Source: a virus (Duplodnaviria > Heunggongvirae > Uroviricota > Caudoviricetes). Taken from it: a DNA stretch of 12,734 nucleotides. Each line of letters opens with the position of its first letter. Position 1 is the first letter of the stretch. Below the pieces are notes generated by a model that was not told the origin of the DNA, made no database searches, and saw only the letters and a program-made list of their open reading frames with translations. Location: the IMG/VR virus record IMGVR_UViG_2548876862_000016; one strand, given 5' to 3'. Below, in pieces: positions 1 through 12,447 of this stretch. Made by a program: the position numbers and the translations under genes.

Positions 1-55
1 ATGATGCCAGTTAGCCGTTATCTCTGCATTTTCATAAACGTTGGTTTGGGAGAAG
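1..55. repeat. Left inverted repeat of the invertible tail-fibre segment (55/55 identical to the reverse complement of 1942-1996)
   Basis: Base-by-base comparison: 1-55 equals the reverse complement of 1942-1996; identity stops at position 56/1941. The repeat starts at the window edge, so its outer limit on the left cannot be seen. Confidence 0.9.
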
Positions 56-432
56 CGGCAACGAGGAACGTCGGAACGGATACCGGGCAAGTACCAGATA
101 TGAGTAGTTTTACAACGGGGTATTCTGGAGCAGCAAACTGGCCGAATAGTAAATCTGGATGGAGTAAGGGGCCGGATGGGGTAATTACACAATGGGGTAT
201 TTTCGGTTTCCCCGTTGGACAGACAGGGACGAATGTTGTTTTCCCGCTACCTTTCCCCGCGCGGGTCGAATCAATTACACTGACAATGGCAGATATCCAG
301 GAGTCTCTGCTTTCTCCAACAACCATGCCTGCTTATGGAGTTAACTCAACTGGTACTTCAAGAACGGGTTTTACAGCCCGTATGTCAGGCGTCGGTGGGT
401 TTAATCTTTGCTATATAGCGAAAGGGAGATAA
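1..432 (+). CDS. Tail-fibre C-terminal variable cassette A (receptor-binding part), probably fused in frame to a constant N-terminal part upstream of the window; 5' end likely incomplete
   Basis: Only frame 1 is open through the inverted repeat; the ORF runs to a stop at 430-432 and is followed 4 nt later by a tail-fibre assembly gene with a GGGAGA ribosome-binding site. Same strand as the tail operon. Confidence 0.65.
   Translation: MMPVSRYLCIFINVGLGEAATRNVGTDTGQVPDMSSFTTGYSGAANWPNSKSGWSKGPDGVITQWGIFGFPVGQTGTNVVFPLPFPARVESITLTMADIQESLLSPTTMPAYGVNSTGTSRTGFTARMSGVGGFNLCYIAKGR
29..54. other. hix/gix-like 26-bp invertase crossover site (left)
   Basis: TTTTCATAAACGTTGGTTTGGGAGAA; its reverse complement TTCTCCCAAACCAACGTTTATGAAAA matches the remembered hixL sequence TTCTTGAAAACCAAGGTTTTTGATAA at 20 of 26 positions, including the AAACC / central AA / GTTT core. 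Confidence 0.7.
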
Positions 433-436
433 CAGA

Positions 437-880
437 ATGAATAAAGTTAAAAGTGTTTACAGCCCGTCCGAAAATGCAATCTACAACGCAGCGCTATATG
501 AAAGTTATATCAAGGAGGGGGCATGGCCGCAGGATGGTATTGAAATCAGCGATGAGGATGCTGTCAGATTTAATGGGGGAAATAAGCCAACAGGAAAAAT
601 GCTGGGAATGGTTTCAGGGACCCTTGCATGGGTTGATGAGCCGCCGCTTTCACCAGAACAGAAAATATCAGATGCAGAAAACATGAAAGCCACATTTCGT
701 GCAAAAGCTGACAGTGAAATATCCTGGCGTCAGGATGCTGTTGATGCTGGTATCGCAACTGATGAAGAAACTTCAACTCTCACCCAATGGAAGAAATACC
801 GTGTGCTGCTGATGCGTGTTGATACGTCAACAGCACCCGATATTGAATGGCCTACGCCTCCGGCAGCTCAGGCCAGATGA
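437..880 (+). CDS. Tail-fibre assembly chaperone (Tfa, P2 G / Mu U family), partner of cassette A
   Basis: 147 aa; C-terminal motif ...RVDTSTAPDIEWPTPP typical of Tfa proteins; GGGAGA ribosome-binding site 8 nt upstream of the ATG. Confidence 0.85.
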   Translation: MNKVKSVYSPSENAIYNAALYESYIKEGAWPQDGIEISDEDAVRFNGGNKPTGKMLGMVSGTLAWVDEPPLSPEQKISDAENMKATFRAKADSEISWRQDAVDAGIATDEETSTLTQWKKYRVLLMRVDTSTAPDIEWPTPPAAQAR

Positions 881-1457
881 CATCAGGCGCGGTGCTGGTA
901 TCTGTTGCCGTCACCGCGTCAATGTAATCCAGCACGACGTTAAGTCGGGTTGTTTCTGCCGGCGTCAACTTCCGTCCGGCCTGTAATTTCAACTGAATCA
1001 GACTAATGGAAGCTATTGCAGTATCCATCAGCGACTGGCGCTGTGCTTCTGCTGCATCTACTGCGGCGCTATGCTGTGCCTCGGTATCCGTCACCCATTT
1101 CTCACCATCCCATTTATCGTATGGCGTTAACGGGGCTATAGTGGTTGTATTTTCGGGGTAATCACCCGGAGTTGTGATTTCTTTGGCGTCTCCCGTTTCG
1201 GTGTTATAGACGATTTCACCGCGATGGTCTGGCACATATTCCCATGAGTTTAAATCTGCCGAACGGCAGATTGCATAACCAGCCTTATGTATACCAGGTT
1301 CATCCAGACAGGAATATGCCGGAATACCAACACCTACAGCAAGAAATTCGGTTGATGCAGAAATATATTCCCTTGTCTCACTGTTATAGTTGTAAACGAT
1401 AATGTTTCCTTCCTGTACGGCAATAAGCTCATTGTTTAATATCGCGTTATTCATCAT
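852..1457 (-). CDS. tfaE: Tail-fibre assembly chaperone (TfaE-like), partner of cassette B
   Basis: 201 aa starting MMNNAILNNEL... with C-terminal ...LDYIDAVTATDTSTAPDVIWPELPEA; closely resembles the e14 prophage TfaE as I remember it. Its ATG overlaps the stop of the upstream cassette (ATGA). Confidence 0.8.
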   Translation of the reverse strand: MMNNAILNNELIAVQEGNIIVYNYNSETREYISASTEFLAVGVGIPAYSCLDEPGIHKAGYAICRSADLNSWEYVPDHRGEIVYNTETGDAKEITTPGDYPENTTTIAPLTPYDKWDGEKWVTDTEAQHSAAVDAAEAQRQSLMDTAIASISLIQLKLQAGRKLTPAETTRLNVVLDYIDAVTATDTSTAPDVIWPELPEA

Positions 1458-1996
1458 GCAGCTCTCACAATATAGTTAAATGCAATATTTCGCGGGCGTG
1501 TTTCATTTGTTCCGTATGCTGTTGTTCTTTGGTTGCCGACAAAATATCCATTTGGATTCGAAGATACAGAGTAATCATCAAAATCAAGTGGACTATCAGC
1601 GCCCGGAGTCAGACTGGCAATATATCCTCTACCCATAACTTCTGATGCTGGTATTTCTTTTGTACGATAATCACTGACTCTGAATATCTGCCCCTGATGA
1701 GTATGTAATTCTACCCCTCCATTCTGAATACTTAGCAGCGTACGTTCTGCATCAATGCCGCGCCCATCATCCCAGCCACGAATAAACTCACCGCGTAAAT
1801 CAGGCAGTTTATTTGTCGGATAAGCCTTTGCCAGTTTAGGATATTCAACGGCAGAAAATACTGCACCGTTGCATTTCAGCCAGCCTGTCGGCGGCGTAGC
1901 TGAAGGCCACGGAACTATCACGCCAACAGGCAACGCAGAACCTTCTCCCAAACCAACGTTTATGAAAATGCAGAGATAACGGCTAACTGGCATCAT
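1454..1996 (-). CDS. Tail-fibre C-terminal variable cassette B with phage tail-collar-like domain; silent in the present orientation
   Basis: 180 aa containing PVGVIVPWP...PTGWLKCNGAVFS...LPDLRGEFIRGWDDGRGID, the tail-collar signature. Begins with the same 18 inverted-repeat-encoded residues as cassette A; an in-frame stop (2006-2008 on the minus strand) lies just upstream. Confidence 0.8.
   Translation of the reverse strand: MMPVSRYLCIFINVGLGEGSALPVGVIVPWPSATPPTGWLKCNGAVFSAVEYPKLAKAYPTNKLPDLRGEFIRGWDDGRGIDAERTLLSIQNGGVELHTHQGQIFRVSDYRTKEIPASEVMGRGYIASLTPGADSPLDFDDYSVSSNPNGYFVGNQRTTAYGTNETRPRNIAFNYIVRAA
1942..1996. repeat. Right inverted repeat of the invertible segment
   Basis: Reverse complement is identical to 1-55. 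Confidence 0.9.
1943..1968. other. hix/gix-like 26-bp invertase crossover site (right)
   Basis: TTCTCCCAAACCAACGTTTATGAAAA; 12-bp half sites flank the central AA at 1955-1956. Confidence 0.7.
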
Positions 1997-2023
1997 CCCC
2001 GGTTTTTATTCAGGGGATTGATC

Positions 2024-2590
2024 ATGCTTATTGGCTATGTACGCGTGTCAACAAATGACCAGAACACCGATTTGCAACGTAATGCACTGAACTGCGCGGG
2101 ATGTGAGCGGATTTTTGAGGACAAAATCAGTGGCACTAAGTCCGACAGACCGGGGCTGAAAAAACTACTCAGGACACTATCGGCAGGAGACACGCTGGTT
2201 GTCTGGAAGCTGGACAGGTTGGGGCGCAGTATGCGGCATCTTGTTACGCTGATAGAAGAGTTGCGCCAGCGTGGTGTGAATTTCAGAAGCCTGACTGACA
2301 GTATTGATACCAGTACCCCAATGGGCCGTTTCTTTTTTCATGTCATGGGTGCCCTGGCTGAAATGGAACGCGAACTGATAGTTGAACGTACCAGGGCAGG
2401 GCTGGCTGCAGCTCGTGCCAAAGGCAGAGTAGGTGGACGCCGTCCTAAGTTGACCACCGAACAGTGGGCACAGATTGGGCGTTTACTCGAGGCCGGAGAA
2501 TCAAGACAGCGTATTGCACTGATTTTTGATGTAGGCGTTTCTACCATTTATAGAAAATTTCCGGCAAATAAGATCAATGAATCCCCCTGA
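2024..2590 (+). CDS. pin: Site-specific DNA invertase, serine recombinase of the Gin/Pin/Cin/Hin family
   Basis: MLIGYVRVSTNDQNTDLQRNALNCAGCE...LVVWKLDRLGRSMRHL...GRFFFHVMGALAEMERELIVERT...GRRPKL...STIYR matches the invertase family almost residue for residue, with the catalytic Ser in YVRVSTNDQ and a C-terminal helix-turn-helix. The ORF track starts at TTG 2018; ATG 2024, 7 nt after GGGG, gives the canonical MLIGY N-terminus. Confidence 0.95.
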   Translation: MLIGYVRVSTNDQNTDLQRNALNCAGCERIFEDKISGTKSDRPGLKKLLRTLSAGDTLVVWKLDRLGRSMRHLVTLIEELRQRGVNFRSLTDSIDTSTPMGRFFFHVMGALAEMERELIVERTRAGLAAARAKGRVGGRRPKLTTEQWAQIGRLLEAGESRQRIALIFDVGVSTIYRKFPANKINESP

Positions 2591-2638
2591 ATCAGCATTA
2601 TGTTGATTATCCCTGCAAGCAGACAAATACCGTTATTT

Positions 2639-2656
2639 TGTGTGAATAACGACACA
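2639..2656 (+). promoter_or_regulatory. Candidate Ogr-dependent P2 late promoter element (TGT-N12-ACA) for the FI operon
   Basis: TGTGTGAATAACGACACA, dyad centred about 85 bp upstream of the FI ATG; P2 late promoters carry this motif near -55. No strong -10 hexamer could be picked out. Confidence 0.45.
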
Positions 2657-2732
2657 ACTGCGCTTAGCTGTTTGTCAGGCACAATCACTTCAACATAGGG
2701 CGAAGCCTAATCCAATCAGGAGGTTCGCCACT

Positions 2733-3905
2733 ATGGCTCAGGATTACCACCACGGGGTGCGCGTTGTTGAAGTCAACGAAGGCACCCGATCTATTACCAC
2801 GGTGAGCACCGCCATCGTGGGTATGGTCTGCACGGGCGATGATGCCGATGCAAAAATGTTTCCTCTTAATAAACCCGTGCTGATCACTGATGTGCTGACT
2901 GCCAGCGGTAAAGCGGGTGAGTCAGGTACTCTGGCCCGTTCGCTGGATGCCATCGCTGACCAGGCAAAACCCGTGACCATTGTTGTGCGTGTGCCGCAGG
3001 GTGAAACGGAAGACGAAACCACGACCAATATCATCGGCGCAGTGACCGCTGAAGGTAAAAAAACAGGTATGAAAGCCCTGTTATCTGCCCAGTCACAGCT
3101 CGGCGTTAAACCGCGCATTCTCGGCGTGCCAGGCCACGACACCAAGGCGGTAGCTACTGAGTTGCTGAGCGTGGCGCAAAGCCTGCGTGGATTTGCTTAC
3201 CTGTCAGCGTATGGCTGCAAGACAGTGCAGGAGGCGATCACTTACCGCGAAAACTTCAGCCAGCGCGAAGGGATGCTGATCTGGCCTGACTTTACTGGCT
3301 GGGACACGGTGCTGAATGCCGAAGCAACGGCATATGCCACCGCCCGTGCGCTTGGTCTGCGCGCCAAAATTGACGAGCAGACCGGATGGCACAAAAGCCT
3401 GTCCAACGTGGGCGTGAACGGTGTCACCGGAATTTCTGCAGATGTGTTCTGGGATCTGCAGGACCCGGCAACCGATGCAGGTCTGCTGAACCAGAACGAC
3501 GTCACCACGCTTGTGCGTAAAGACGGTTTCCGCTTCTGGGGTTCCCGCTGCCTGAGTGATGACCCGCTCTTTGCCTTCGAAAACTACACCCGCACGGCGC
3601 AGGTGCTGATGGACACGATGGCAGAAGCACACATGTGGGCGGTGGATAAACCGCTTAACCCGTCGCTGGCCCGCGACATTATCGAAGGTATCCGCGCCAA
3701 AATGCGCAGCCTGGTCAGTCAGGGCTATCTCATTGGTGGTGATTGCTGGCTGGATGAGTCGGTGAACGACAAAGACACGCTGAAAGCCGGAAAACTCACC
3801 ATCGACTACGACTACACGCCAGTGCCGCCACTTGAAAACCTGATGCTGCGTCAGCGCATCACCGATCAGTACCTGGTGAATTTCGCCAGCCAGGTCAGCG
3901 CGTAA
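2733..3905 (+). CDS. FI: Contractile tail sheath protein (P2 gpFI)
   Basis: 390 aa, P2 FI-like in size and sequence; AGGAGG 9 nt upstream of the ATG; first gene of the FI-FII-E-T-U-D block. Confidence 0.95.
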
Positions 3906-3914
3906 GGGGACAAC

Positions 3915-4430
3915 ATGGCTTTACCACGCAAATTAAAACACCTGAACCTGTTTAACGACGGGAACAACTGGCAGGGGATCGTTGAGTCGCTGACGCTGCC
4001 GAAATTTACCCGCAAATATGAGAAGTATCGCGGCGGCGGAATGCCGGGTGCGGTGGATGTGGATCTGGGGCTTGATGACAGTGCGCTGGACACAGAATTT
4101 TCCATTGGTGGTACTGAATTGCTGCTGTTTAAACAGATGGGTAAAGCCACGGTGGATGGCATCCAGCTGCGCTTTACCGGCTCTATTCAGCGTGACGATA
4201 CCGGGGAAGTGCAGGCCGTGGAGCTTGTCGTGCGTGGACGTCACAAAGAAGTGGATTCCGGCGAGTGGAAGACGGGCGAAAGCAACACCACCAAAGTGAC
4301 CAGTACCAACAGCTACGCGAAGCTGACCATCAATGGTGAGGTGCTCTATGAAGTGGACCTTATCAACATGGTGGAAATTGTGGACGGTGTGGACCTGATG
4401 GAAGCGCACCGCAACGCCCTCGGCCTCTGA
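3915..4430 (+). CDS. FII: Tail tube protein (P2 gpFII)
   Basis: 171 aa, P2 FII-like; starts 9 nt after the FI stop, with a GGGGA ribosome-binding site. Confidence 0.95.
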   Translation: MALPRKLKHLNLFNDGNNWQGIVESLTLPKFTRKYEKYRGGGMPGAVDVDLGLDDSALDTEFSIGGTELLLFKQMGKATVDGIQLRFTGSIQRDDTGEVQAVELVVRGRHKEVDSGEWKTGESNTTKVTSTNSYAKLTINGEVLYEVDLINMVEIVDGVDLMEAHRNALGL

Positions 4431-4440
4431 TATATCTGAA

Positions 4441-4459
4441 CGGCGCGGGATACCGCGCC
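4441..4459 (+). other. GC-rich hairpin in the FII-E intergenic region (7-bp stem, GATA loop), no U-tract
   Basis: GGCGCGG-GATA-CCGCGCC at 4442-4459; followed by AGAACCC rather than a T-run, so not a classic intrinsic terminator. Confidence 0.4.
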
Positions 4460-4484
4460 AGAACCCAATTGACAGGACAGCAAA

Positions 4485-4787
4485 ATGAGCGATAAGCAGA
4501 CTGAAAAGACCATTCAACTGGATACCCCCATCAAGCGCGGTAAAACAGAAATCACCGAAATTGTGCTGCGTAAACCGCAGTCCGGTGCGCTGCGCGGTAC
4601 ACGCCTGCAGGCCATTATGGATATGGATGTAAACGCGATGATGACCGTGATCCCCCGCATCTCCAGTCCGGCACTGACTGCACAGGAAATTGCAGAGATG
4701 GACCCGGCAGATCTCACTGCCATGTCGGTTGAGGTTGTCACTTTTTTGTTGAAGAAGTCGGTGCTTGCCGGTTTACCGACAGCCTGA
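4485..4787 (+). CDS. E: Tail assembly chaperone (P2 gpE)
   Basis: 100-aa ORF in the P2 position between FII and T; contains the slippery heptamer near its 3' end. Confidence 0.85.
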   Translation: MSDKQTEKTIQLDTPIKRGKTEITEIVLRKPQSGALRGTRLQAIMDMDVNAMMTVIPRISSPALTAQEIAEMDPADLTAMSVEVVTFLLKKSVLAGLPTA

Positions 4788-4921
4788 CGGTTGACGATCT
4801 GGTGGCAGATATCGCCACCATTTTTCACTGGCCGCCATCCGTTACTGACGTTATGCCGCTGACCGAAGTGCTGGAATGGCGGTATAAAGCGATTCAGAGA
4901 AGCGGGGCCAACGATGAGTGA
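4485..4921 (+). CDS. E+E': Tail assembly chaperone frameshift product (P2 gpE+E'), made by a -1 ribosomal frameshift at 4742-4748
   Basis: T_TTT_TTG lies in the E frame (codons ACT TTT TTG). After a -1 slip the reading frame stays open from 4748 to a TGA at 4919-4921, giving about 145 aa (P2 E+E' is 142 aa) and overlapping the T start codon at 4914. Confidence 0.75.
4742..4748 (+). promoter_or_regulatory. Programmed -1 frameshift slippery heptamer TTTTTTG
   Basis: X_XXY_YYZ heptamer in the correct phase, at the conserved position for the tail-chaperone frameshift. Confidence 0.75.
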
Positions 4922-7900
4922 TAACAGCCTGCGTCTGCAGGTCATTCTTAATGCGGTTGACAAGCTCACCCGCCCATTTCGATCTGCGCAGGCCAGTTCA
5001 AGAGAACTGGCTGCTGCTGTCAAAAAATCCCGCGATGCAATAAAGCAGCTTGATCAGGCCGGGAGCAGTCTGGACAGCTTCCGAAAGCTGCAGGCAGAAA
5101 ATCAGAAATTAGGCGACAGGCTGAACTATGCCCGCCAGCGTGCAAATTTGCTCAGTCAGGAACTGGGAGCGATGGGGCCGCCTTCGCAACGTCAGGTTGT
5201 TGCTCTGGGCCGTCAACGGCTGGCTGTTCAGCGCCTGGAAGAACGCCAGAAAAAGCTGCAGCAGCAGACGGCGCTTGTGCGTGCTGAACTGTACCGGGCG
5301 GGAATTTCTGCGAAAGACGATGCGGGAGCAACTGCCCGTTTAGCCCGTGAAACATCACGTTATAACCAGGAACTTTCGAAACAGGAGGCGCGGCTGAAGC
5401 GACTGGGGGAAGCTCAGCGCAGGATGAATGCAGCGCGTGCCAGTTATGCCCGTTCGCTGGAGGTGCGTGATCGTATTGCAGGTGCCGGAGCCACCACCAC
5501 GGCTGCAGGGCTGGCAATGGGTGCGCCAGTGATGGCGGCAGTAAAAAGCTATACCAGCATGGAAGATGCCATGAAAGGTGTGGCAAAGCAGGTCAATGGT
5601 CTGCGTGACGATAATGGCAACCGCACTGCACGTTTTTATGAAATGCAGGATGCCATCAAGGCTGCCAGCGAACAGTTGCCGATGGAAAACGGTGCGGTGG
5701 ACTTCGCTGCACTGGTTGAAGGTGGTGCGCGCATGAACGTCGCAAACCCTGACGACAGCTGGGAAGATCAGAAACGTGACCTGCTGGCCTTCGCCAGTAC
5801 GGCAGCAAAGGCGGCAACAGCCTTTGAGCTGCCAGCGGATGAACTGTCAGAAAGTCTGGGGAAAATCGCCCAGCTCTACAAAATCCCCACCCGCAATATT
5901 GAACAGCTCGGTGATGCGCTGAACTATCTGGATGATAACGCCATGTCGAAAGGGGCAGACATCATTGATGTGATGCAACGTCTGGGCGGTGTGGCTGACC
6001 GTCTGGATTATCGTAAAGCGGCGGCGCTGGGTTCCACCTTCCTGACACTGGGCGCTGCGCCAGAGGTTGCAGCCAGTGCAGCAAACGCGATGGTGCGTGA
6101 ATTGTCCATTGCCACCATGCAAAGCAAGAGTTTCTTTGAAGGGATGAATCTGCTGAAACTCAATCCTGAAGTGATTGAAAAGCAGATGACGAAGGATGCG
6201 ATGGGAACCATCCAGCGCGTGCTGGAGAAGGTAAACGCGCTGCCGCAGGACAAGCGCCTGTCTGCCATGACTATGTTGTTTGGTAAAGAGTTTGGCGATG
6301 ACGCGGCGAAACTGGCAAACAACCTGCCGGAACTGCAGCGTCAGTTAAAACTGACAGCGGGCAATGATGCGCTCGGCTCCATGCAGAAAGAATCCGACAT
6401 TAACAAGGATTCACTTTCTGCGCAGTGGTTGCTGGTCAAAACCGGAGCGCAGAACACCTTCAGCAGCCTGGGCGAAACGCTGCGCCAGCCGCTGATGGAT
6501 ATTCTGTACACGGTGAAAAGCGTCACGGGGGCGTTGCGTCGCTGGGTGGAAGCTAACCCGGAACTGACAGGCACACTGATGAAAGCATCGGCTGTTGTGG
6601 CTGCGGTTACCGTCGGCCTCGGCACCTTAGCGGTGGCGCTGGCTGCAGTGCTGGGGCCGCTGGCAGTGATCCGTCTGGGATTCTCTGTGTTGGGTATCAA
6701 AACGTTATCTTCCGTTACGGCAGCAGTAACTCGAACCAGCAGCGCGTTGTCCTGGCTGGCTGGCGCACCACTGGCACTGCTGCGACGCGGGCTTGCTTCA
6801 TCGGGCAACGCCGCAGGTTTACTTACTGCGCCGTTGTCGTCTTTGCGCCGCACGGCATCACTGACGGGAAATGTCCTGAAAACTGTAGCAGGTGCGCCGG
6901 TTGCACTTTTGCGGTCTGGATTATCCGGTTTACGTGCTGTTGCTGTGATGTTTATGAATCCTCTGGCGGTACTGCGCGGTGGACTGGCTGCCGCAGGCAC
7001 GGTGCTGCGAGTACTGGCATCTGGTCCACTGGCGATGCTGCGCGTTGCCCTGTATGCCATATCTGGTCTGTTAGGTGCTCTGCTCAGTCCAATAGGTCTT
7101 GTGGTTACTGCACTGGCGGGCGTGGCGCTGGTTGTCTGGAAATACTGGCAACCCATCACCGCATTTCTCGGTGGCGTGGTGGAAGGATTCAAAGCGGCGG
7201 CAGGTCCCATCAGTGCAGCGTTCGAACCGCTTAAGCCCGTGTTCCAGTGGATTGGCGACAAAGTGCAGGCGCTGTGGGGCTGGTTTACTGAACTGCTGAC
7301 GCCCGTTAAGTCGACCTCTGCCGAACTGCAGAGCGCAGCGGCAATGGGGCGACGATTCGGGGAGGCACTGACAGAAGGGCTGAATATGGTCATGCATCCG
7401 CTGGACTCCCTGAAATCCGGCGTTTCCTGGTTGCTGGAGAAACTCGGCATTGTCAGTAAAGAGGCTGCAAAGGCGAAACTGCCGGAAAGCGTGACGCGTC
7501 AGCAACCTGCGACGGTGAATGCAGACGGTAAAGTGATGATGTCATCGGGTGATTTTCCGTCATGGGGATATGGCTTTGCGGGGATGTATGACAGCGGCGG
7601 CTATATCCCGCGCGGGCAGTTTGGCATCGTCGGTGAAAACGGGCCGGAAATTGTTAACGGCCCGGCAAACGTGACCAGCCGGAGAAATACAGCTGCACTG
7701 GCTGCCGTTGTCGCCGGAATGATGGGTGTTGCTGCCGCGCCAGCAGAGCTTCCACCGTTGCATCCTTTGGCGCTTCCCGCAAAAGGCGGTGAAGCGATGG
7801 TGAGTCGTGCAGCTACTGTGCCGCCCATTTACCGGATTGAAGCACCGACGCAGATCATCATCCAGACACAGCCAGGACAAAGTGCGCAGGATATTGCGCG

Positions 7901-7991
7901 GGAGGTGGCCCGCCAGCTTGATGAACGTGAACGCAGGCTGAAGGCAAAAGCCAGGAGTAACTACAGCGATCAGGGGGGATACGACGCATGA
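4914..7991 (+). CDS. T: Tail tape measure protein (P2 gpT)
   Basis: 1025 aa; coiled-coil-like N-terminal third, central hydrophobic repeat region, Gly-rich C-terminal part; lies between E/E' and U. Confidence 0.95.
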   Translation: MSDNSLRLQVILNAVDKLTRPFRSAQASSRELAAAVKKSRDAIKQLDQAGSSLDSFRKLQAENQKLGDRLNYARQRANLLSQELGAMGPPSQRQVVALGRQRLAVQRLEERQKKLQQQTALVRAELYRAGISAKDDAGATARLARETSRYNQELSKQEARLKRLGEAQRRMNAARASYARSLEVRDRIAGAGATTTAAGLAMGAPVMAAVKSYTSMEDAMKGVAKQVNGLRDDNGNRTARFYEMQDAIKAASEQLPMENGAVDFAALVEGGARMNVANPDDSWEDQKRDLLAFASTAAKAATAFELPADELSESLGKIAQLYKIPTRNIEQLGDALNYLDDNAMSKGADIIDVMQRLGGVADRLDYRKAAALGSTFLTLGAAPEVAASAANAMVRELSIATMQSKSFFEGMNLLKLNPEVIEKQMTKDAMGTIQRVLEKVNALPQDKRLSAMTMLFGKEFGDDAAKLANNLPELQRQLKLTAGNDALGSMQKESDINKDSLSAQWLLVKTGAQNTFSSLGETLRQPLMDILYTVKSVTGALRRWVEANPELTGTLMKASAVVAAVTVGLGTLAVALAAVLGPLAVIRLGFSVLGIKTLSSVTAAVTRTSSALSWLAGAPLALLRRGLASSGNAAGLLTAPLSSLRRTASLTGNVLKTVAGAPVALLRSGLSGLRAVAVMFMNPLAVLRGGLAAAGTVLRVLASGPLAMLRVALYAISGLLGALLSPIGLVVTALAGVALVVWKYWQPITAFLGGVVEGFKAAAGPISAAFEPLKPVFQWIGDKVQALWGWFTELLTPVKSTSAELQSAAAMGRRFGEALTEGLNMVMHPLDSLKSGVSWLLEKLGIVSKEAAKAKLPESVTRQQPATVNADGKVMMSSGDFPSWGYGFAGMYDSGGYIPRGQFGIVGENGPEIVNGPANVTSRRNTAALAAVVAGMMGVAAAPAELPPLHPLALPAKGGEAMVSRAATVPPIYRIEAPTQIIIQTQPGQSAQDIAREVARQLDERERRLKAKARSNYSDQGGYDA
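6765..7055 (+). repeat. Five degenerate tandem repeats (63-66 nt period) inside T, encoding a hydrophobic 21-22 aa unit (x-P-L-A/S-x-L-R-x-G-L)
   Basis: Repeat units start near 6765, 6828, 6894, 6957 and 7023: APLALLRRGL / APLSSLRRTASL / APVALLRSGL / NPLAVLRGGL / GPLAMLRVAL. Confidence 0.7.
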
Positions 7992-8473
7992 TGATGGTGC
8001 TGGGATTGTACGTGTTTATGCTGCGCACCGTGCCGTATCAGGAGCTGCAGTATCAACGCAGCTGGCGACATGCGGCAAACAGCCGGGTAAACCGACGTCC
8101 GTCCACGCAGTTTCTGGGACCGGACAACGACATGCTGACGCTTTCCGGTGTTCTTATGCCGGAGATAACAGGTGGCAGGCTGTCGTTGCTGGCACTGGAG
8201 CAGATGGCAGAACAGGGGAAAGCATGGCCCCTGATTGAAGGCAGTGGCACGATTTATGGCATGTATGTGATTGAGGGACTGAATCAGACTAAAACGGAGT
8301 TTTTCCGCGACGGTATGCCGCGCCGGATTGAGTTCACCCTGTCGCTCAAACGGGTGGATGAATCCCTGTCCGATATATTCGGTGATCTCAGTGCGCAACT
8401 GAATAATCTGCAGGACACAGCAACGTCTGCCTTAAGCGATATCAGTAAAACGGTGGGAGGGCTGCTGTCATGA
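7988..8473 (+). CDS. U: Tail protein (P2 gpU)
   Basis: 161 aa (P2 U is about 159 aa); ATGA overlap with the T stop; three consecutive ATG codons at 7988-7996. Confidence 0.9.
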   Translation: MMMVLGLYVFMLRTVPYQELQYQRSWRHAANSRVNRRPSTQFLGPDNDMLTLSGVLMPEITGGRLSLLALEQMAEQGKAWPLIEGSGTIYGMYVIEGLNQTKTEFFRDGMPRRIEFTLSLKRVDESLSDIFGDLSAQLNNLQDTATSALSDISKTVGGLLS

Positions 8474-9570
8474 ATTTCAGCTCTGAACTGCTTAACAAAG
8501 GCAACAAAACTCCCGCATTCAGCATCAGTATTGAGGGCAGGGATATCACCACTGTGCTGGATAACCGCCTGATGAGTTTGACGCTGACGGACAATCGGGG
8601 CTTTGAAGCGGACCAGCTTGATCTGGAGCTGGACGACGCCGACGGAAAAATCGTGCTGCCGCGCCGTGGTGCGGTTATTACGCTGGCGCTGGGCTGGAAG
8701 GGGCAGCCGCTTTTCCCGAAAGGGGCATTCACGGTGGACGAGATTGAACACACTGGCGCACCGGACCGCCTGACTATCCGGGCGCGAAGTGCTGATTTTC
8801 GTGAAACGCTGAATACCCGCCGTGAAAAGTCGTGGCACAAGACCACCGTCGGGGAAGTGGTGAAGGAAATAGCTGTGCGGCACAAACTGAAGATGGCATT
8901 GGGTAAAGACCTGTCAGATAAACCCGTGGAACATATAGACCAGACCAATGAGAGTGACGGCAGTTTTCTGATGCGGCTGGCGCGCCAGTACGGTGCTATT
9001 GCGTCGGTGAAAAATGGCAATCTGTTATTCATCCGGCAGGGACAGGGTAAAAGCGCCAGCGGTAAACCACTACCGGTTATCACTATCACACGTAAGGACG
9101 GCGACAGTCACCGCTTTACCCTGGCAGATCGCGGAGCCTACACGGGCGTAATTGCCAGCTGGTTGCATACCCGCGAACCCGCGAAGAATGAAAGCACCAC
9201 GGTGAAGCGTAAGCGCAGGACTAAGAAGCAGAAGAAAGAGCCGGAAGCGAAGCAGGGCGATTACCTGGTGGGTACAGATGAAAACGTGCTGGTACTTAAT
9301 CGCACCTATGCCAACCGGAGCAACGCCGAACGGGCGGCGAAAATGCAGTGGGAACGCCTGCAACGCGGCGTTGCGTCATTCTCGCTACAACTGGCAGAAG
9401 GTCGGGCAGATCTCTACACGGAAATGCCAGTGAAAGTCAGTGGCTTTAAACAGCCGATAGATGATGCGGAATGGACCATTACGACTCTGACGCATACCGT
9501 CAGCCCCGATAACGGTTTTACAACCAGTCTGGAGCTTGAAGTGAGGATTGATGATTTCGAAATGGAATGA
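8470..9570 (+). CDS. D: Tail protein / late gene D product (P2 gpD)
   Basis: 366 aa with a basic KRKRRTKKQKKEPEAK stretch; ATGA overlap with the U stop; last gene of the tail block before ogr. Confidence 0.95.
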   Translation: MNFSSELLNKGNKTPAFSISIEGRDITTVLDNRLMSLTLTDNRGFEADQLDLELDDADGKIVLPRRGAVITLALGWKGQPLFPKGAFTVDEIEHTGAPDRLTIRARSADFRETLNTRREKSWHKTTVGEVVKEIAVRHKLKMALGKDLSDKPVEHIDQTNESDGSFLMRLARQYGAIASVKNGNLLFIRQGQGKSASGKPLPVITITRKDGDSHRFTLADRGAYTGVIASWLHTREPAKNESTTVKRKRRTKKQKKEPEAKQGDYLVGTDENVLVLNRTYANRSNAERAAKMQWERLQRGVASFSLQLAEGRADLYTEMPVKVSGFKQPIDDAEWTITTLTHTVSPDNGFTTSLELEVRIDDFEME

Positions 9571-9596
9571 TTCTTCGCAATGGAGAACTTTTAAGT

Positions 9597-9626
9597 TTGC
9601 AAAATGGAATAATGCGGTGTCATTAT
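9597..9626 (+). promoter_or_regulatory. Candidate sigma70 promoter for ogr (TTGCAA, 18-bp spacer, extended -10 TGtCATTAT)
   Basis: Hexamers read directly from the D-ogr intergenic sequence; weak match, no experimental support. Confidence 0.3.
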
Positions 9627-9660
9627 TGTGAATTTAGCAAAAATGGGGAGAACTCGAAAA

Positions 9661-9879
9661 ATGATGATTTGCCCACTGTGTGGAAGTGCCGCCCATACTC
9701 GCAGCAGTTTTCAGGTATCTTCATTGACCAAAGAGCGTTACAACCAGTGCCAGAACATTAACTGCAGCCATACTTTTGTTACCCATGAAACTTTTGTTCG
9801 TTCGATTGCAACGCCAAAAGAGTCAAATCCGGTTCAGCCGCATCCAATGAAATCAGGACAGGTGGCGCTCTCTCTTTGA
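9661..9879 (+). CDS. ogr: Late transcription activator Ogr (zinc-finger, P2 Ogr / 186 B / P4 delta family)
   Basis: CPLCGSAAHTRSS...YNQCQNINCSHTF gives the Cys4 zinc-finger pattern of Ogr. The ORF track starts at GTG 9628, but ATG 9661, 10 nt after GGGGAG, gives the canonical ~72-aa protein beginning MMICPLC. Confidence 0.85.
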   Translation: MMICPLCGSAAHTRSSFQVSSLTKERYNQCQNINCSHTFVTHETFVRSIATPKESNPVQPHPMKSGQVALSL

Positions 9880-10114: not shown

Positions 10115-11800
10115 TTATCCTAATCTTGGCCATACCATGACGATGATTGTCCCTGCCAGCGTCAGCAGGACGTTGGCGATTGCATAGGTGCCCGCATAGC
10201 CCAGCGCCGGGATGTTACTGCGAGCTGTATCACTGATGATCTCCATTGCCGGCGCGCAGGTACGTGCGCCCATCATTGCGCCGAACAACAGCGCGCGGTT
10301 CATTCGCAATACATAAGCACCGAACAAGAAACAGATAACCACGGGCACCAGACTGACAATCAATCCGGCAATCAACATCTGACCGCCAATCGCGCCCAGG
10401 CCGTTATTAATACCGCTACCGGCGCTCAGACCAACGCCTGCCATAAACACCATCAAGCCGAACTCTTTCACCATGCTTAATGCACCCTGCGGAATGTAAC
10501 CGAAGGTCGGGTGGTTAGCACGCATAAAGCCCAGCATAATTCCGGCGAATAACAACCCGGCAGCGTTCCCCATGCCGAAACTGAATGTGCTGAACTGGAA
10601 GGTGATCATCCCGATCATCAGCCCAATAACAAAGAAGGCGCAGAATGCCAGCAGGTCAGTGACCTGGCTGTGAATCGAGATAAAGCCGATGCGATCGGCG
10701 ATGGTTTTTACGCGGCGGGCATCGCCGCTGACTTGTAAAACGTCACCTTTGTTAAGCACGACGTTGTCATCTATCGGCATCTCAATCTGGCTACGAATGA
10801 CGCGGTTAAGGAAGCAACCGTGATCGGTCAACTTCAGTTGTGCGAGACGTTTACCTACAGCGTTATGGTTTTTAACGACCACTTCTTCAGTGACGATACG
10901 CATGTCGAGAAGGTCACGATCGAAAACTTCTTTACCGTTACGGAAGCTGGGATCGAGTCGGGCATGGGCGTCGGGATAGCCTACCAACGCTATTTCATCG
11001 CCCATTTGTAGCACGGCATCACCGTCTGGATTTGCCAGAATCCCGTTACGTCGAATACGTTCAATGTAGCAGCCGGTTTGTCGATAAATACCCAGTTCAC
11101 GCAGATTTTTGCCGTCGGTCCAGGCCACCAGTTCCGGGCCGACGCGATAGGCGCGGATCACCGGTAAATAAACCTTACGGTTGGCATCAGTGTCCAGGCC
11201 ACGTTCGCGGGCGATTTGCTGGGCGCTGGTCTGTAAGTCCTGATGCTGCAATTTCGGCAAGTAACGCGCACCAACAATCAAACTCACCAGACCGATTAAA
11301 TAGGTTAAGGCATACCCGAGGCTCAGATTATCCAGTGCCAGTGAGAGCTGCCTGCTTTCCATGCCGGAATGACGCAGTGTATCGCCAGCACCGACCAGAA
11401 CCGGTGTCGACGTCATAGAACCTGCTAACATACCGGCCGTCAGGCCAATATCCCAGCCAAACAGCTTACCTAACCCTAAGGCGATCACCAGCGCACTGCC
11501 AACCATCACCAGTGCTAACATTAGGTAATTTTTCCCATCGCGAAAAAAAATGGAAAAAAAGTTCGGTCCGGCTTCGACCCCGACGCAGAAAATAAACAGC
11601 ATAAAGCCAAGATTAAGCGCATCGGTGTTAATGCTGAAATGTTGTTGGCCTAATAACAGCGATACGACTAAAACGCCAATGGAATTACCCAGTTGGATCG
11701 AACCAAGTCGTAACTTTCCGAGACATAGCCCAAGCGCGAGGACCACAAATAATAACAGAATGTAATTCCCATTTAACAATTCGGCGACGTTTATATTCAC
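10115..11800 (-). CDS. ybjL: Putative transport protein YbjL (AAE / YidE-YbjL family with two central RCK/TrkA-C domains)
   Basis: 561 aa, [36 protein letters not shown]...; matches E. coli YbjL in length and sequence as I remember it; GTG start at 11800. Confidence 0.93.
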
Positions 11801-12069: not shown

Positions 12070-12447
12070 GTGAAACATAAACAACGTTGGGCGGGGGCAA
12101 TCTGCTGTTTTGTCCTCTTCATTGTGGTGTGCCTTTTTCTGGCGACGCACATGAAAGGCGCTTTTCGGGCTGCCGGGCATCCTGAAATCGGCTTGCTATT
12201 TTTCATTCTTCCTGGAGCAGTCGCCAGCTTCTTTTCACAGCGTAGAGAAGTCCTGAAACCTCTGTTTGGCGCAATGCTGGCGGCACCCTGTTCGATGCTC
12301 ATTATGCGGCTGTTTTTTTCACCGACGCGCTCATTCTGGCAAGAGCTGGCATGGTTACTAAGCGCGGTGTTCTGGTGTGCGCTGGGGGCACTGTGTTTCT
12401 TATTTATCAGTAGTTTGTTTAAACCACAGCACAGAAAAAATCAGTAA
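12070..12447 (+). CDS. ybjM: Inner membrane protein YbjM
   Basis: 125 aa, MKHKQRWAGAICCFVLFIVVCLF...; GTG start with AGGAGG 6 nt upstream; divergent from ybjL as in E. coli. Confidence 0.9.
   Translation: MKHKQRWAGAICCFVLFIVVCLFLATHMKGAFRAAGHPEIGLLFFILPGAVASFFSQRREVLKPLFGAMLAAPCSMLIMRLFFSPTRSFWQELAWLLSAVFWCALGALCFLFISSLFKPQHRKNQ

Follow-up and report, generated by a model that had tools for sequence, protein, structure and literature searches.

A long inverted repeat at the start of a P2-like prophage contig: very probably an assembly artefact of an ordinary invertible tail-fibre segment

Does the long inverted repeat with which this locus opens belong to the prophage genome, or to the way in which its contig was put together? 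The DNA analysed here, a stretch of 12,734 nucleotides that we call the window, carries at positions 1-55 and 1942-1996 an inverted repeat of 55 nt with 100% complementary arms, a pair for which our own estimate of the chance expectation in 12.7 kb is about 1e-25. The original prediction took it for an inverted repeat extending about 28 bp outside the crossover core. We find it very probable that the apparent long repeat is instead the same 40 nt written twice, an assembly artefact of an ordinary invertible fibre segment of which both orientations were sequenced. The repeat is present in the sequence, and its extension past the 26-bp core, as judged from the alignments described below, is not a genomic feature. 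The coordinates of all features are collected in Table 1.

Table 1. Features of the window, followed by the junction elements read from its relatives
Feature	Position	Strand	Basis or content
Inverted copy of the invertase-site flank, holding ATGATG	1..28	+	Reverse complement of 1969-1996
26-bp crossover site, recombinant (flipped-state) form	29..54	+	Junction comparison; L001 homology from 41
Parts of site 29..54	29-40; 41-42; 43-54		Invertase-side outer half TTTTCATAAACG; core TT; inner half GGTTTGGGAGAA
Fibre C-terminal cassette 1, Gp53-like_C	1..432	+	Pfam PF21882; 143-aa ORF from the flank ATGATG
Tail fibre assembly chaperone, cassette 1	437..880	+	Pfam Caudo_TAP, E = 1e-32
Tail fibre assembly chaperone, cassette 2	852..1457	-	Caudo_TAP, E = 7e-31; tfaE-like annotation in relatives
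Fibre C-terminal cassette 2, Collar domain	1454..1996	-	Pfam PF07484; 180-aa ORF from the flank ATGATG
Invertase-side 26-bp crossover site	1943..1968	+	
Parts of site 1943..1968	1943-1954; 1955-1956; 1957-1968		Inner half TTCTCCCAAACC; core AA; outer half CGTTTATGAAAA
55-nt spacer from site to invertase ATG	1969..2023	+	Alignment to e14 pinE and Mu gin upstream regions; conserved block TGGCATCAT (1988-1996, reverse complement of ATGATGCCA), T-run, ribosome-binding site AGGGGA
Serine DNA invertase, 188 aa	2024..2590	+	Resolvase PF00239 2e-53 and HTH_7 PF02796 1e-15
Sheath, tube, tail assembly genes, tape measure	2733-7991	+	
Small ORF, putative ogr-like	9567-9761		Position and size; no Pfam match
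Host gene ybjL	10115-11800	-	
Host gene ybjM	12070-12447		
Fibre-side site	After fibre coding sequence		TTCTCACATACC-TT-GGTTTGGGAGAA
Invertase-side site	After ...TAAAAACCGGGGATGATGCCAGTTAGCCGTTATCTCTGCA		TTTTCATAAACG-TT-GGTTTGGGAGAA
Fibre constant region, site-proximal end			...GGTCTTCTCACATACCTTGGTTTGGGAGAAG

An exact-protein match to the ORF at 1-432 retrieved the 86.6-kb draft contig AIBM01000029.1 (L005; GCA_000446785.2), whose bases 2-12735 are the window, with 0 mismatches over the 6432 nt compared. This contig begins 1 nt ahead of window position 1. Its arms measure 56 nt (contig coordinates 1-56 and 1943-1998) and are 100% identical up to contig base 1, so that the left arm ends where the assembly ends. 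It had been pointed out that the left end of the repeat coincides with the window edge, which is correct; this edge, however, is the physical end of the parent contig.

The finished genome NZ_CP041678 (L001) holds a prophage 99.9% identical to the window (2 mismatches in 6660 nt) and co-linear with it only from position 41. At positions 1-40 there are 25 mismatches, and the left flank in L001 is the coding sequence of a 479-aa fibre gene. The same prophage is found in flipped state, with 0 mismatches, on a 124-kb contig of GCA_051437965.1 (L004): window 1-1956 corresponds to L004 6001-7956 and window 1957-7996 to the reverse complement of L004 1-6040. Because both blocks map onto it, window 1-40 and window 1957-1996 are one single 40-nt stretch of L004. 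In these two other assemblies, which hold the segment in opposite orientations at 0-2 mismatches, the sole repeat is an imperfect Gin/Pin-type crossover site of 26-27 nt; in L001 it is a single inverted repeat of 27 nt at 85%. The extension of about 28 bp outside the core thus fails as a biological feature, and from these alignments the outer 40 nt of the left arm are almost certainly not a second genomic copy. Window 1-28 is identical to L004 6001-6028 and to 5001-5028 of a further relative (L002), directly adjoining the invertase gene, and this flank is not present on the left side of the unflipped L001; by its sequence it is part of the junction of the flipped state. Of the 21 finished E. 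coli genomes co-linear with window 1-2700, not one matches ahead of position 36, and in finished genomes that match 1-140 fully (L002 and L003 were inspected) the stretch abuts the invertase on the opposite strand.

The junctions tell the two states apart. In L001 cassette 1 is attached to the fibre side and cassette 2 to the invertase side, L004 and L002 have the reverse, and in the window both cassettes are attached to the invertase side and neither to the fibre side. The identity of the junctions, and their presence or absence in the relatives, can be read directly from the aligned sequences, which also place the exchange point within 41-55; the exchange itself would occur at the TT of 41-42.

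We read the locus as an ordinary invertible tail-fibre segment in a P2-like prophage, with two cassettes and a Gin/Pin-type serine invertase, and a fibre switch of this kind is well described and nothing new. It is established that Gin/Hin-type sites have a 2-bp core. Two inverted 26-bp sites with imperfect 12-bp half-sites and an identical 2-bp core are found in L001 and L004, and the Hin (hix) site has the same size of 26 bp (PMC3798978). The sites lie within the fibre frame, the C-termini are exchanged, and each cassette has one chaperone (two Caudo_TAP genes). A small serine recombinase with Resolvase and C-terminal HTH_7 domains adjoins the segment, its gene being conserved as DNA with pinE and gin over the first 200 nt, in the 5' part where members of this family would have a Fis-bound recombinational enhancer, and both states occur with reciprocal junctions (L001 against L004 and L002). 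The L001 and L004 fibres share 354 identical N-terminal residues, ending in ...LLTYLGLGE, and continue with AATRNVG... (479 aa) or GSALPVG... (516 aa). In the unflipped state the residues of cassette 1 from LGLGE on form the C-terminus of the 479-aa fibre (L001 CDS 2953-4392); cassette 2, parked beside the invertase in the orientation of the window, forms when flipped the C-terminus of the 516-aa fibre (L004 gene 7454-9004). The surroundings of the segment are a P2-type tail module, and the ORFs after 7991 fit P2 genes U, D and ogr in order and size. The prophage ends shortly past the small ORF at 9567-9761, host ybjL and ybjM coming next.

On the reading that we propose, the two 26-bp sites of real molecules have nothing in common beyond the central TT and the inner half-site (window 41-55). 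Site 1 lies inside the fibre gene after the 354-aa constant part, and site 2 at 55 nt upstream of the invertase gene. As expected from its family, a Gin/Hin-type invertase would cut each 26-bp site at its central 2 bp and swap the halves. Inversion would then exchange the cassette, together with its own chaperone, that is fused to the constant part, while the other cassette would be parked beside the invertase and would gain the start codon ATGATG from the invertase flank.

How often a longer repeat occurs at related loci was seen from 80 IMG/VR loci around close invertase relatives, roughly 55 of which span the segment. In the approximately 45 spanning loci with a fibre-type outer half-site, the outward match is only 26-30 of 54 positions and perfect complementarity is mostly 14-15 nt, with a maximum of 34. 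Extended repeats of the P1 C-segment type, with outside homology at both ends, were seen neither in L001, given its mismatches over the first 40 positions, nor in these loci. A true long repeat of the kind known from P1 or Mu was likewise rejected: the finished relatives are without it, and the extra length of Mu lies inside the segment. One further locus (L052) has a fibre-type outer half, TTCTCGCATACC, at its invertase-side site, which gives a perfect 27-nt repeat.

A terminal repeat like that of the window was found on two unrelated contigs (L035 and L043), in both of exactly 77 nt and reaching up to 6 nt from the invertase ATG; these arms extend beyond the stop codon that had been noted just outside the right copy. 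At least five further contigs start at a crossover site or a few bases from one. The repeat thus varies in length by assembly, and it is absent from L001-L004 and from the 21 co-linear finished genomes. With arms of 56 nt in this contig and of 77 nt in L035 and L043, the repeat has an outer boundary set per assembly, and the only biological boundary is the inner one, window 55, where the homology between the cassettes stops. In another locus (L039) a 782-nt perfect inverted repeat (1-782 and 2495-3276) encloses an internal region, and the contig starts at the central TT of the site; here either duplicated cassettes or an assembly artefact could be the cause.

The invertase flank stands on both sides of the segment in three of the approximately 55 spanning IMG/VR loci. 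In L016 (IMGVR_UViG_2695420809_000009, 947-4064) two diverged invertase genes, inverted relative to each other, enclose the segment; over about 500 nt the arms share about 82-86% identity and do not form a simple fold-back, both cassettes have an MMPVS leader, and no fibre constant region adjoins. Either the arrangement with two invertases is real, or two prophages have been joined into a chimera. The other two, L036 (about 666-4330) and L081 (about 375-4743), have palindromic arms of 886 and 1299 nt that are 100% identical, break off abruptly and put the invertase side at both segment ends, a scrambled inverted piece following in L081. The abrupt break of the identical arms, and the scrambling beyond them in L081, led us to reject both as genuine precedents; they were probably mis-assembled by fold-back and share their origin with the terminal repeat of the window.

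These loci bear on the possibility that the extended repeat is real, the invertase flank truly standing at the left end through an inverted duplication or a second invertase gene. The repeat would then measure 56 nt or more, and it would not adjoin the constant part of the fibre. Invertase flanks at both segment ends would indeed yield an identical contig, and L016, with its two different invertase genes and MMPVS leaders on both sides, offers a parallel. We nevertheless consider this very unlikely, as the arm is 100% identical and halts at the contig end, the identical prophage has normal architecture in L004 and L001, a like terminal repeat of another length (77 nt) is present in other assemblies, and L081 is visibly scrambled past its arm.

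The artefact that we favour could arise as follows. Contig-end overlaps of de Bruijn assemblies (Velvet/SPAdes-type) leave a 100%-identical arm at the contig end, with a length fixed per assembly, and such overlap repeats sit at branch points where one sequence has two alternative neighbours; 56 and 77 nt fit the usual overlap sizes, although the commonest setting gives an overlap of 55 and not exactly 56. If the sequenced DNA was a mixture of both orientations, a de Bruijn-type assembler arriving at the branch would open a contig with the last common k-mer of invertase flank and site, that is window 1-55. It would have written cassette 1 with the invertase flank (the flipped junction) and cassette 2 with the same flank (the unflipped junction), and would have stopped after one 56-nt graph overlap. 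We infer the mixed population, the assembler mechanism and the missing fibre-side contig from the junctions, and the sequenced culture probably held both states. Coexistence of both states in clonal E. coli cultures has been described for the segments of e14 and of P2-like prophages (PMC4272514). As a single assembly contains junctions of both types, the structure of the contig suggests that inversion occurs in the strain of the window.

Two junction types in one assembly could also come from two elements. A second prophage or e14-like element with an identical parked cassette 1 and a flank identical over at least 41 nt might have been present, and the assembler might have merged both loci; the repeat would still be an artefact, yet would say nothing about active switching. 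In E. coli genomes with such segments the median number of matching places is 2 and the maximum 12, and the invertase-side flank is highly conserved between elements. On the other hand, the contig continues unbroken past the invertase, over about 7.7 kb of tail genes and the host genes ybjL and ybjM, as far as 86 kb, and therefore the invertase side is single-copy in the assembly; the second element would moreover need a cassette 1 identical beyond a read length. On balance we regard such a merger as quite unlikely, and we retain the mixed-orientation reading.

Segment switching in culture can thus start a draft contig with a perfect inverted copy of the far-side flank, and caution is needed since such a copy mimics a long inverted repeat together with a truncated gene that has its own start codon, its length being due to the assembler and not to biology. 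The same terminal-repeat artefact is also a cheap sign that both orientations were probably in the sample.

The reading frames of the repeat were for the most part described correctly. Frame 1 is open, the left arm being translated as MMPVSRYLCIFINVGLGE; frame 2 is closed by a stop at 2-4 and has a further one at 32-34; frame 3 is closed as well, but by a TAG at 12-14 and not at 10-12. The in-frame stop reported on the minus strand by the right copy is the TAA at 2006-2008, three codons ahead of the right-hand ATGATG. Both cassettes keep frame 1, as had been said, with ORFs at 1-432 (+) and 1454-1996 (-), and the crossover site encodes ...LGLGE. The tail-fibre gene of the relatives uses the same frame: window 41 corresponds to L001 position 4001, the second base of codon 350.

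It had been left undecided whether the left copy is fused to a constant fibre N-terminus or is a fragment starting at ATG-ATG, as in the defective e14. Both are true, depending on the state: window 1-432 is the parked fragment, and the locus of the relatives is fused and intact. Read literally, window 1-432 is an e14 stfE-type parked ORF starting at ATG-ATG. It had also been proposed that an in-frame stop immediately upstream, with no tail-fibre gene nearby, would make the switch a relic. This test is misleading: the molecules represented by window 1-60 show exactly that, and the switch is nevertheless intact, as the fibre gene is found at the opposite end of the segment. The stfE-like fragment, as far as the sequences tell, does not make the locus a relic, since the fibre N-terminus is at the far end of the segment and the relatives have a complete baseplate and fibre module. 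A defective fibre fragment of e14 type, without a full-length N-terminus, was not found in the relatives differing by 0-2 mismatches, which encode 479- and 516-aa fibres with a Phage_tail_fib N-terminal domain along with the baseplate genes V, W, J and I. A damaged fibre does exist in some relatives: in the finished genome NZ_CP039298 (L003, 6445-7728) the segment-side fibre gene is annotated as two pseudogene pieces.

The flank copied at the left end is itself well conserved. Of 45 distinct flank variants, 44 carry ATGATGCCA unchanged; the frame is kept open, and codons 4-9 of the leader vary mostly non-synonymously (S/A/N/T, R/C/H/W, Y/N, L/R/F). Read on the other strand, the unchanging bases are TGGCATCAT, a block that is likewise conserved in the upstream regions of Mu gin and e14 pinE. 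Selection for coding in the MMPVSRYLCIFINV leader was considered and rejected, in view of the changes in codons 4-9 and of one locus (L071) without the leader; no evidence for a selected leader peptide was found among the 45 flank variants. We take the conservation of the flank to reflect upstream signals of the invertase. L071 has an unrelated invertase flank, lacks the ATG leader and has a closed frame. A block TGGCAT(C/G)AT followed by a GCTTTTA run and a ribosome-binding site is conserved in the window prophage, e14 (L006) and Mu (L087); it lies about 30-35 nt upstream of the invertase start, and its opposite strand supplies the ATG of the parked cassette in all three.

Apart from the repeat of the window itself, the same conservation of the flank is all that could suggest that the outer 28 nt extend the functional site, for instance as an accessory binding site required on both sides. 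It is, however, accounted for by the place of the flank ahead of the invertase gene, and on the fibre side the 28 nt are missing from functional loci of either orientation. Contradicted in this way by the finished genomes, a functional extension is extremely improbable.

ATGATG might still give the parked cassette a start of its own, and the product would be a free, N-terminally truncated receptor-binding tip of StfE/StfE2 type that flips with the switch. We consider this unlikely. If it were true, the truncated tip might block the adsorption of other phages. The ORF at 1-432 has the architecture of StfE2, with a stfE-type leader and a gp53-like C-terminus, and over-produced e14 StfE2 blocks the adsorption of other phages (PMC12529663). 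When 1850-2750 was scanned for promoters and terminators, the spacer between site and invertase gave no promoter-like site. The scan returned a promoter-like TTGTCT-18-CATAAT at 2626-2597 (-), just downstream of the invertase gene and directed antisense through it towards the parked cassette, at chance frequency. At 1985-2004 (+), ahead of the invertase start and after the crossover site, a hairpin with a T-run resembles a terminator; such hairpins are no commoner than in shuffled sequence.

Among known systems, the P segment of e14 in E. coli K-12 (PinE; stfP/tfaP, tfaE/stfE, pinE) has the same gene order, with DNA identity of 89-92% over much of the segment. Its core and inner half-site TTGGTTTGGGAGAAG are identical to those of the window, and so is its invertase-side outer half TTTTCATAAACG. 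The published repeat of the e14 P segment, TTGGTTTGGGAGAAGG (PMC12529663), is the invertase-side site of the window at 1943..1968. The e14 stfE reads (M)MPFACYFFIFINVGLGE where the window reads MMPVSRYLCIFINVGLGE, the ATGATGCCA leader being common to both. However, e14 is a defective lambdoid remnant whose fibre-side stfP has only 209 aa, whereas the relatives of the window have a 354-aa P2 H-like constant N-terminus in a complete P2-type tail module.

The G segment of Mu has a Gin 75% identical to the invertase of the window, 26-bp sites inside the fibre gene, constant and variable fibre parts, and U/U' chaperones. The invertase is just outside the segment, as in the window, and the parked ORF Mup52 starts in the gin-side flank. 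Mu differs in its repeat of 34-41 nt, with the extra length inside the segment, in being a transposable phage, and in its cassettes. The order of modules is also that of P2-like prophages with an invertible fibre, such as Escherichia phage pro483 and those of EPEC (PMC4272514), which have fibre, segment, invertase, sheath and tube in this order and at least two variants by inversion. Nothing essential differs from these, and the window prophage is another member of the P2-like invertible-fibre group, with its own pair of cassettes.
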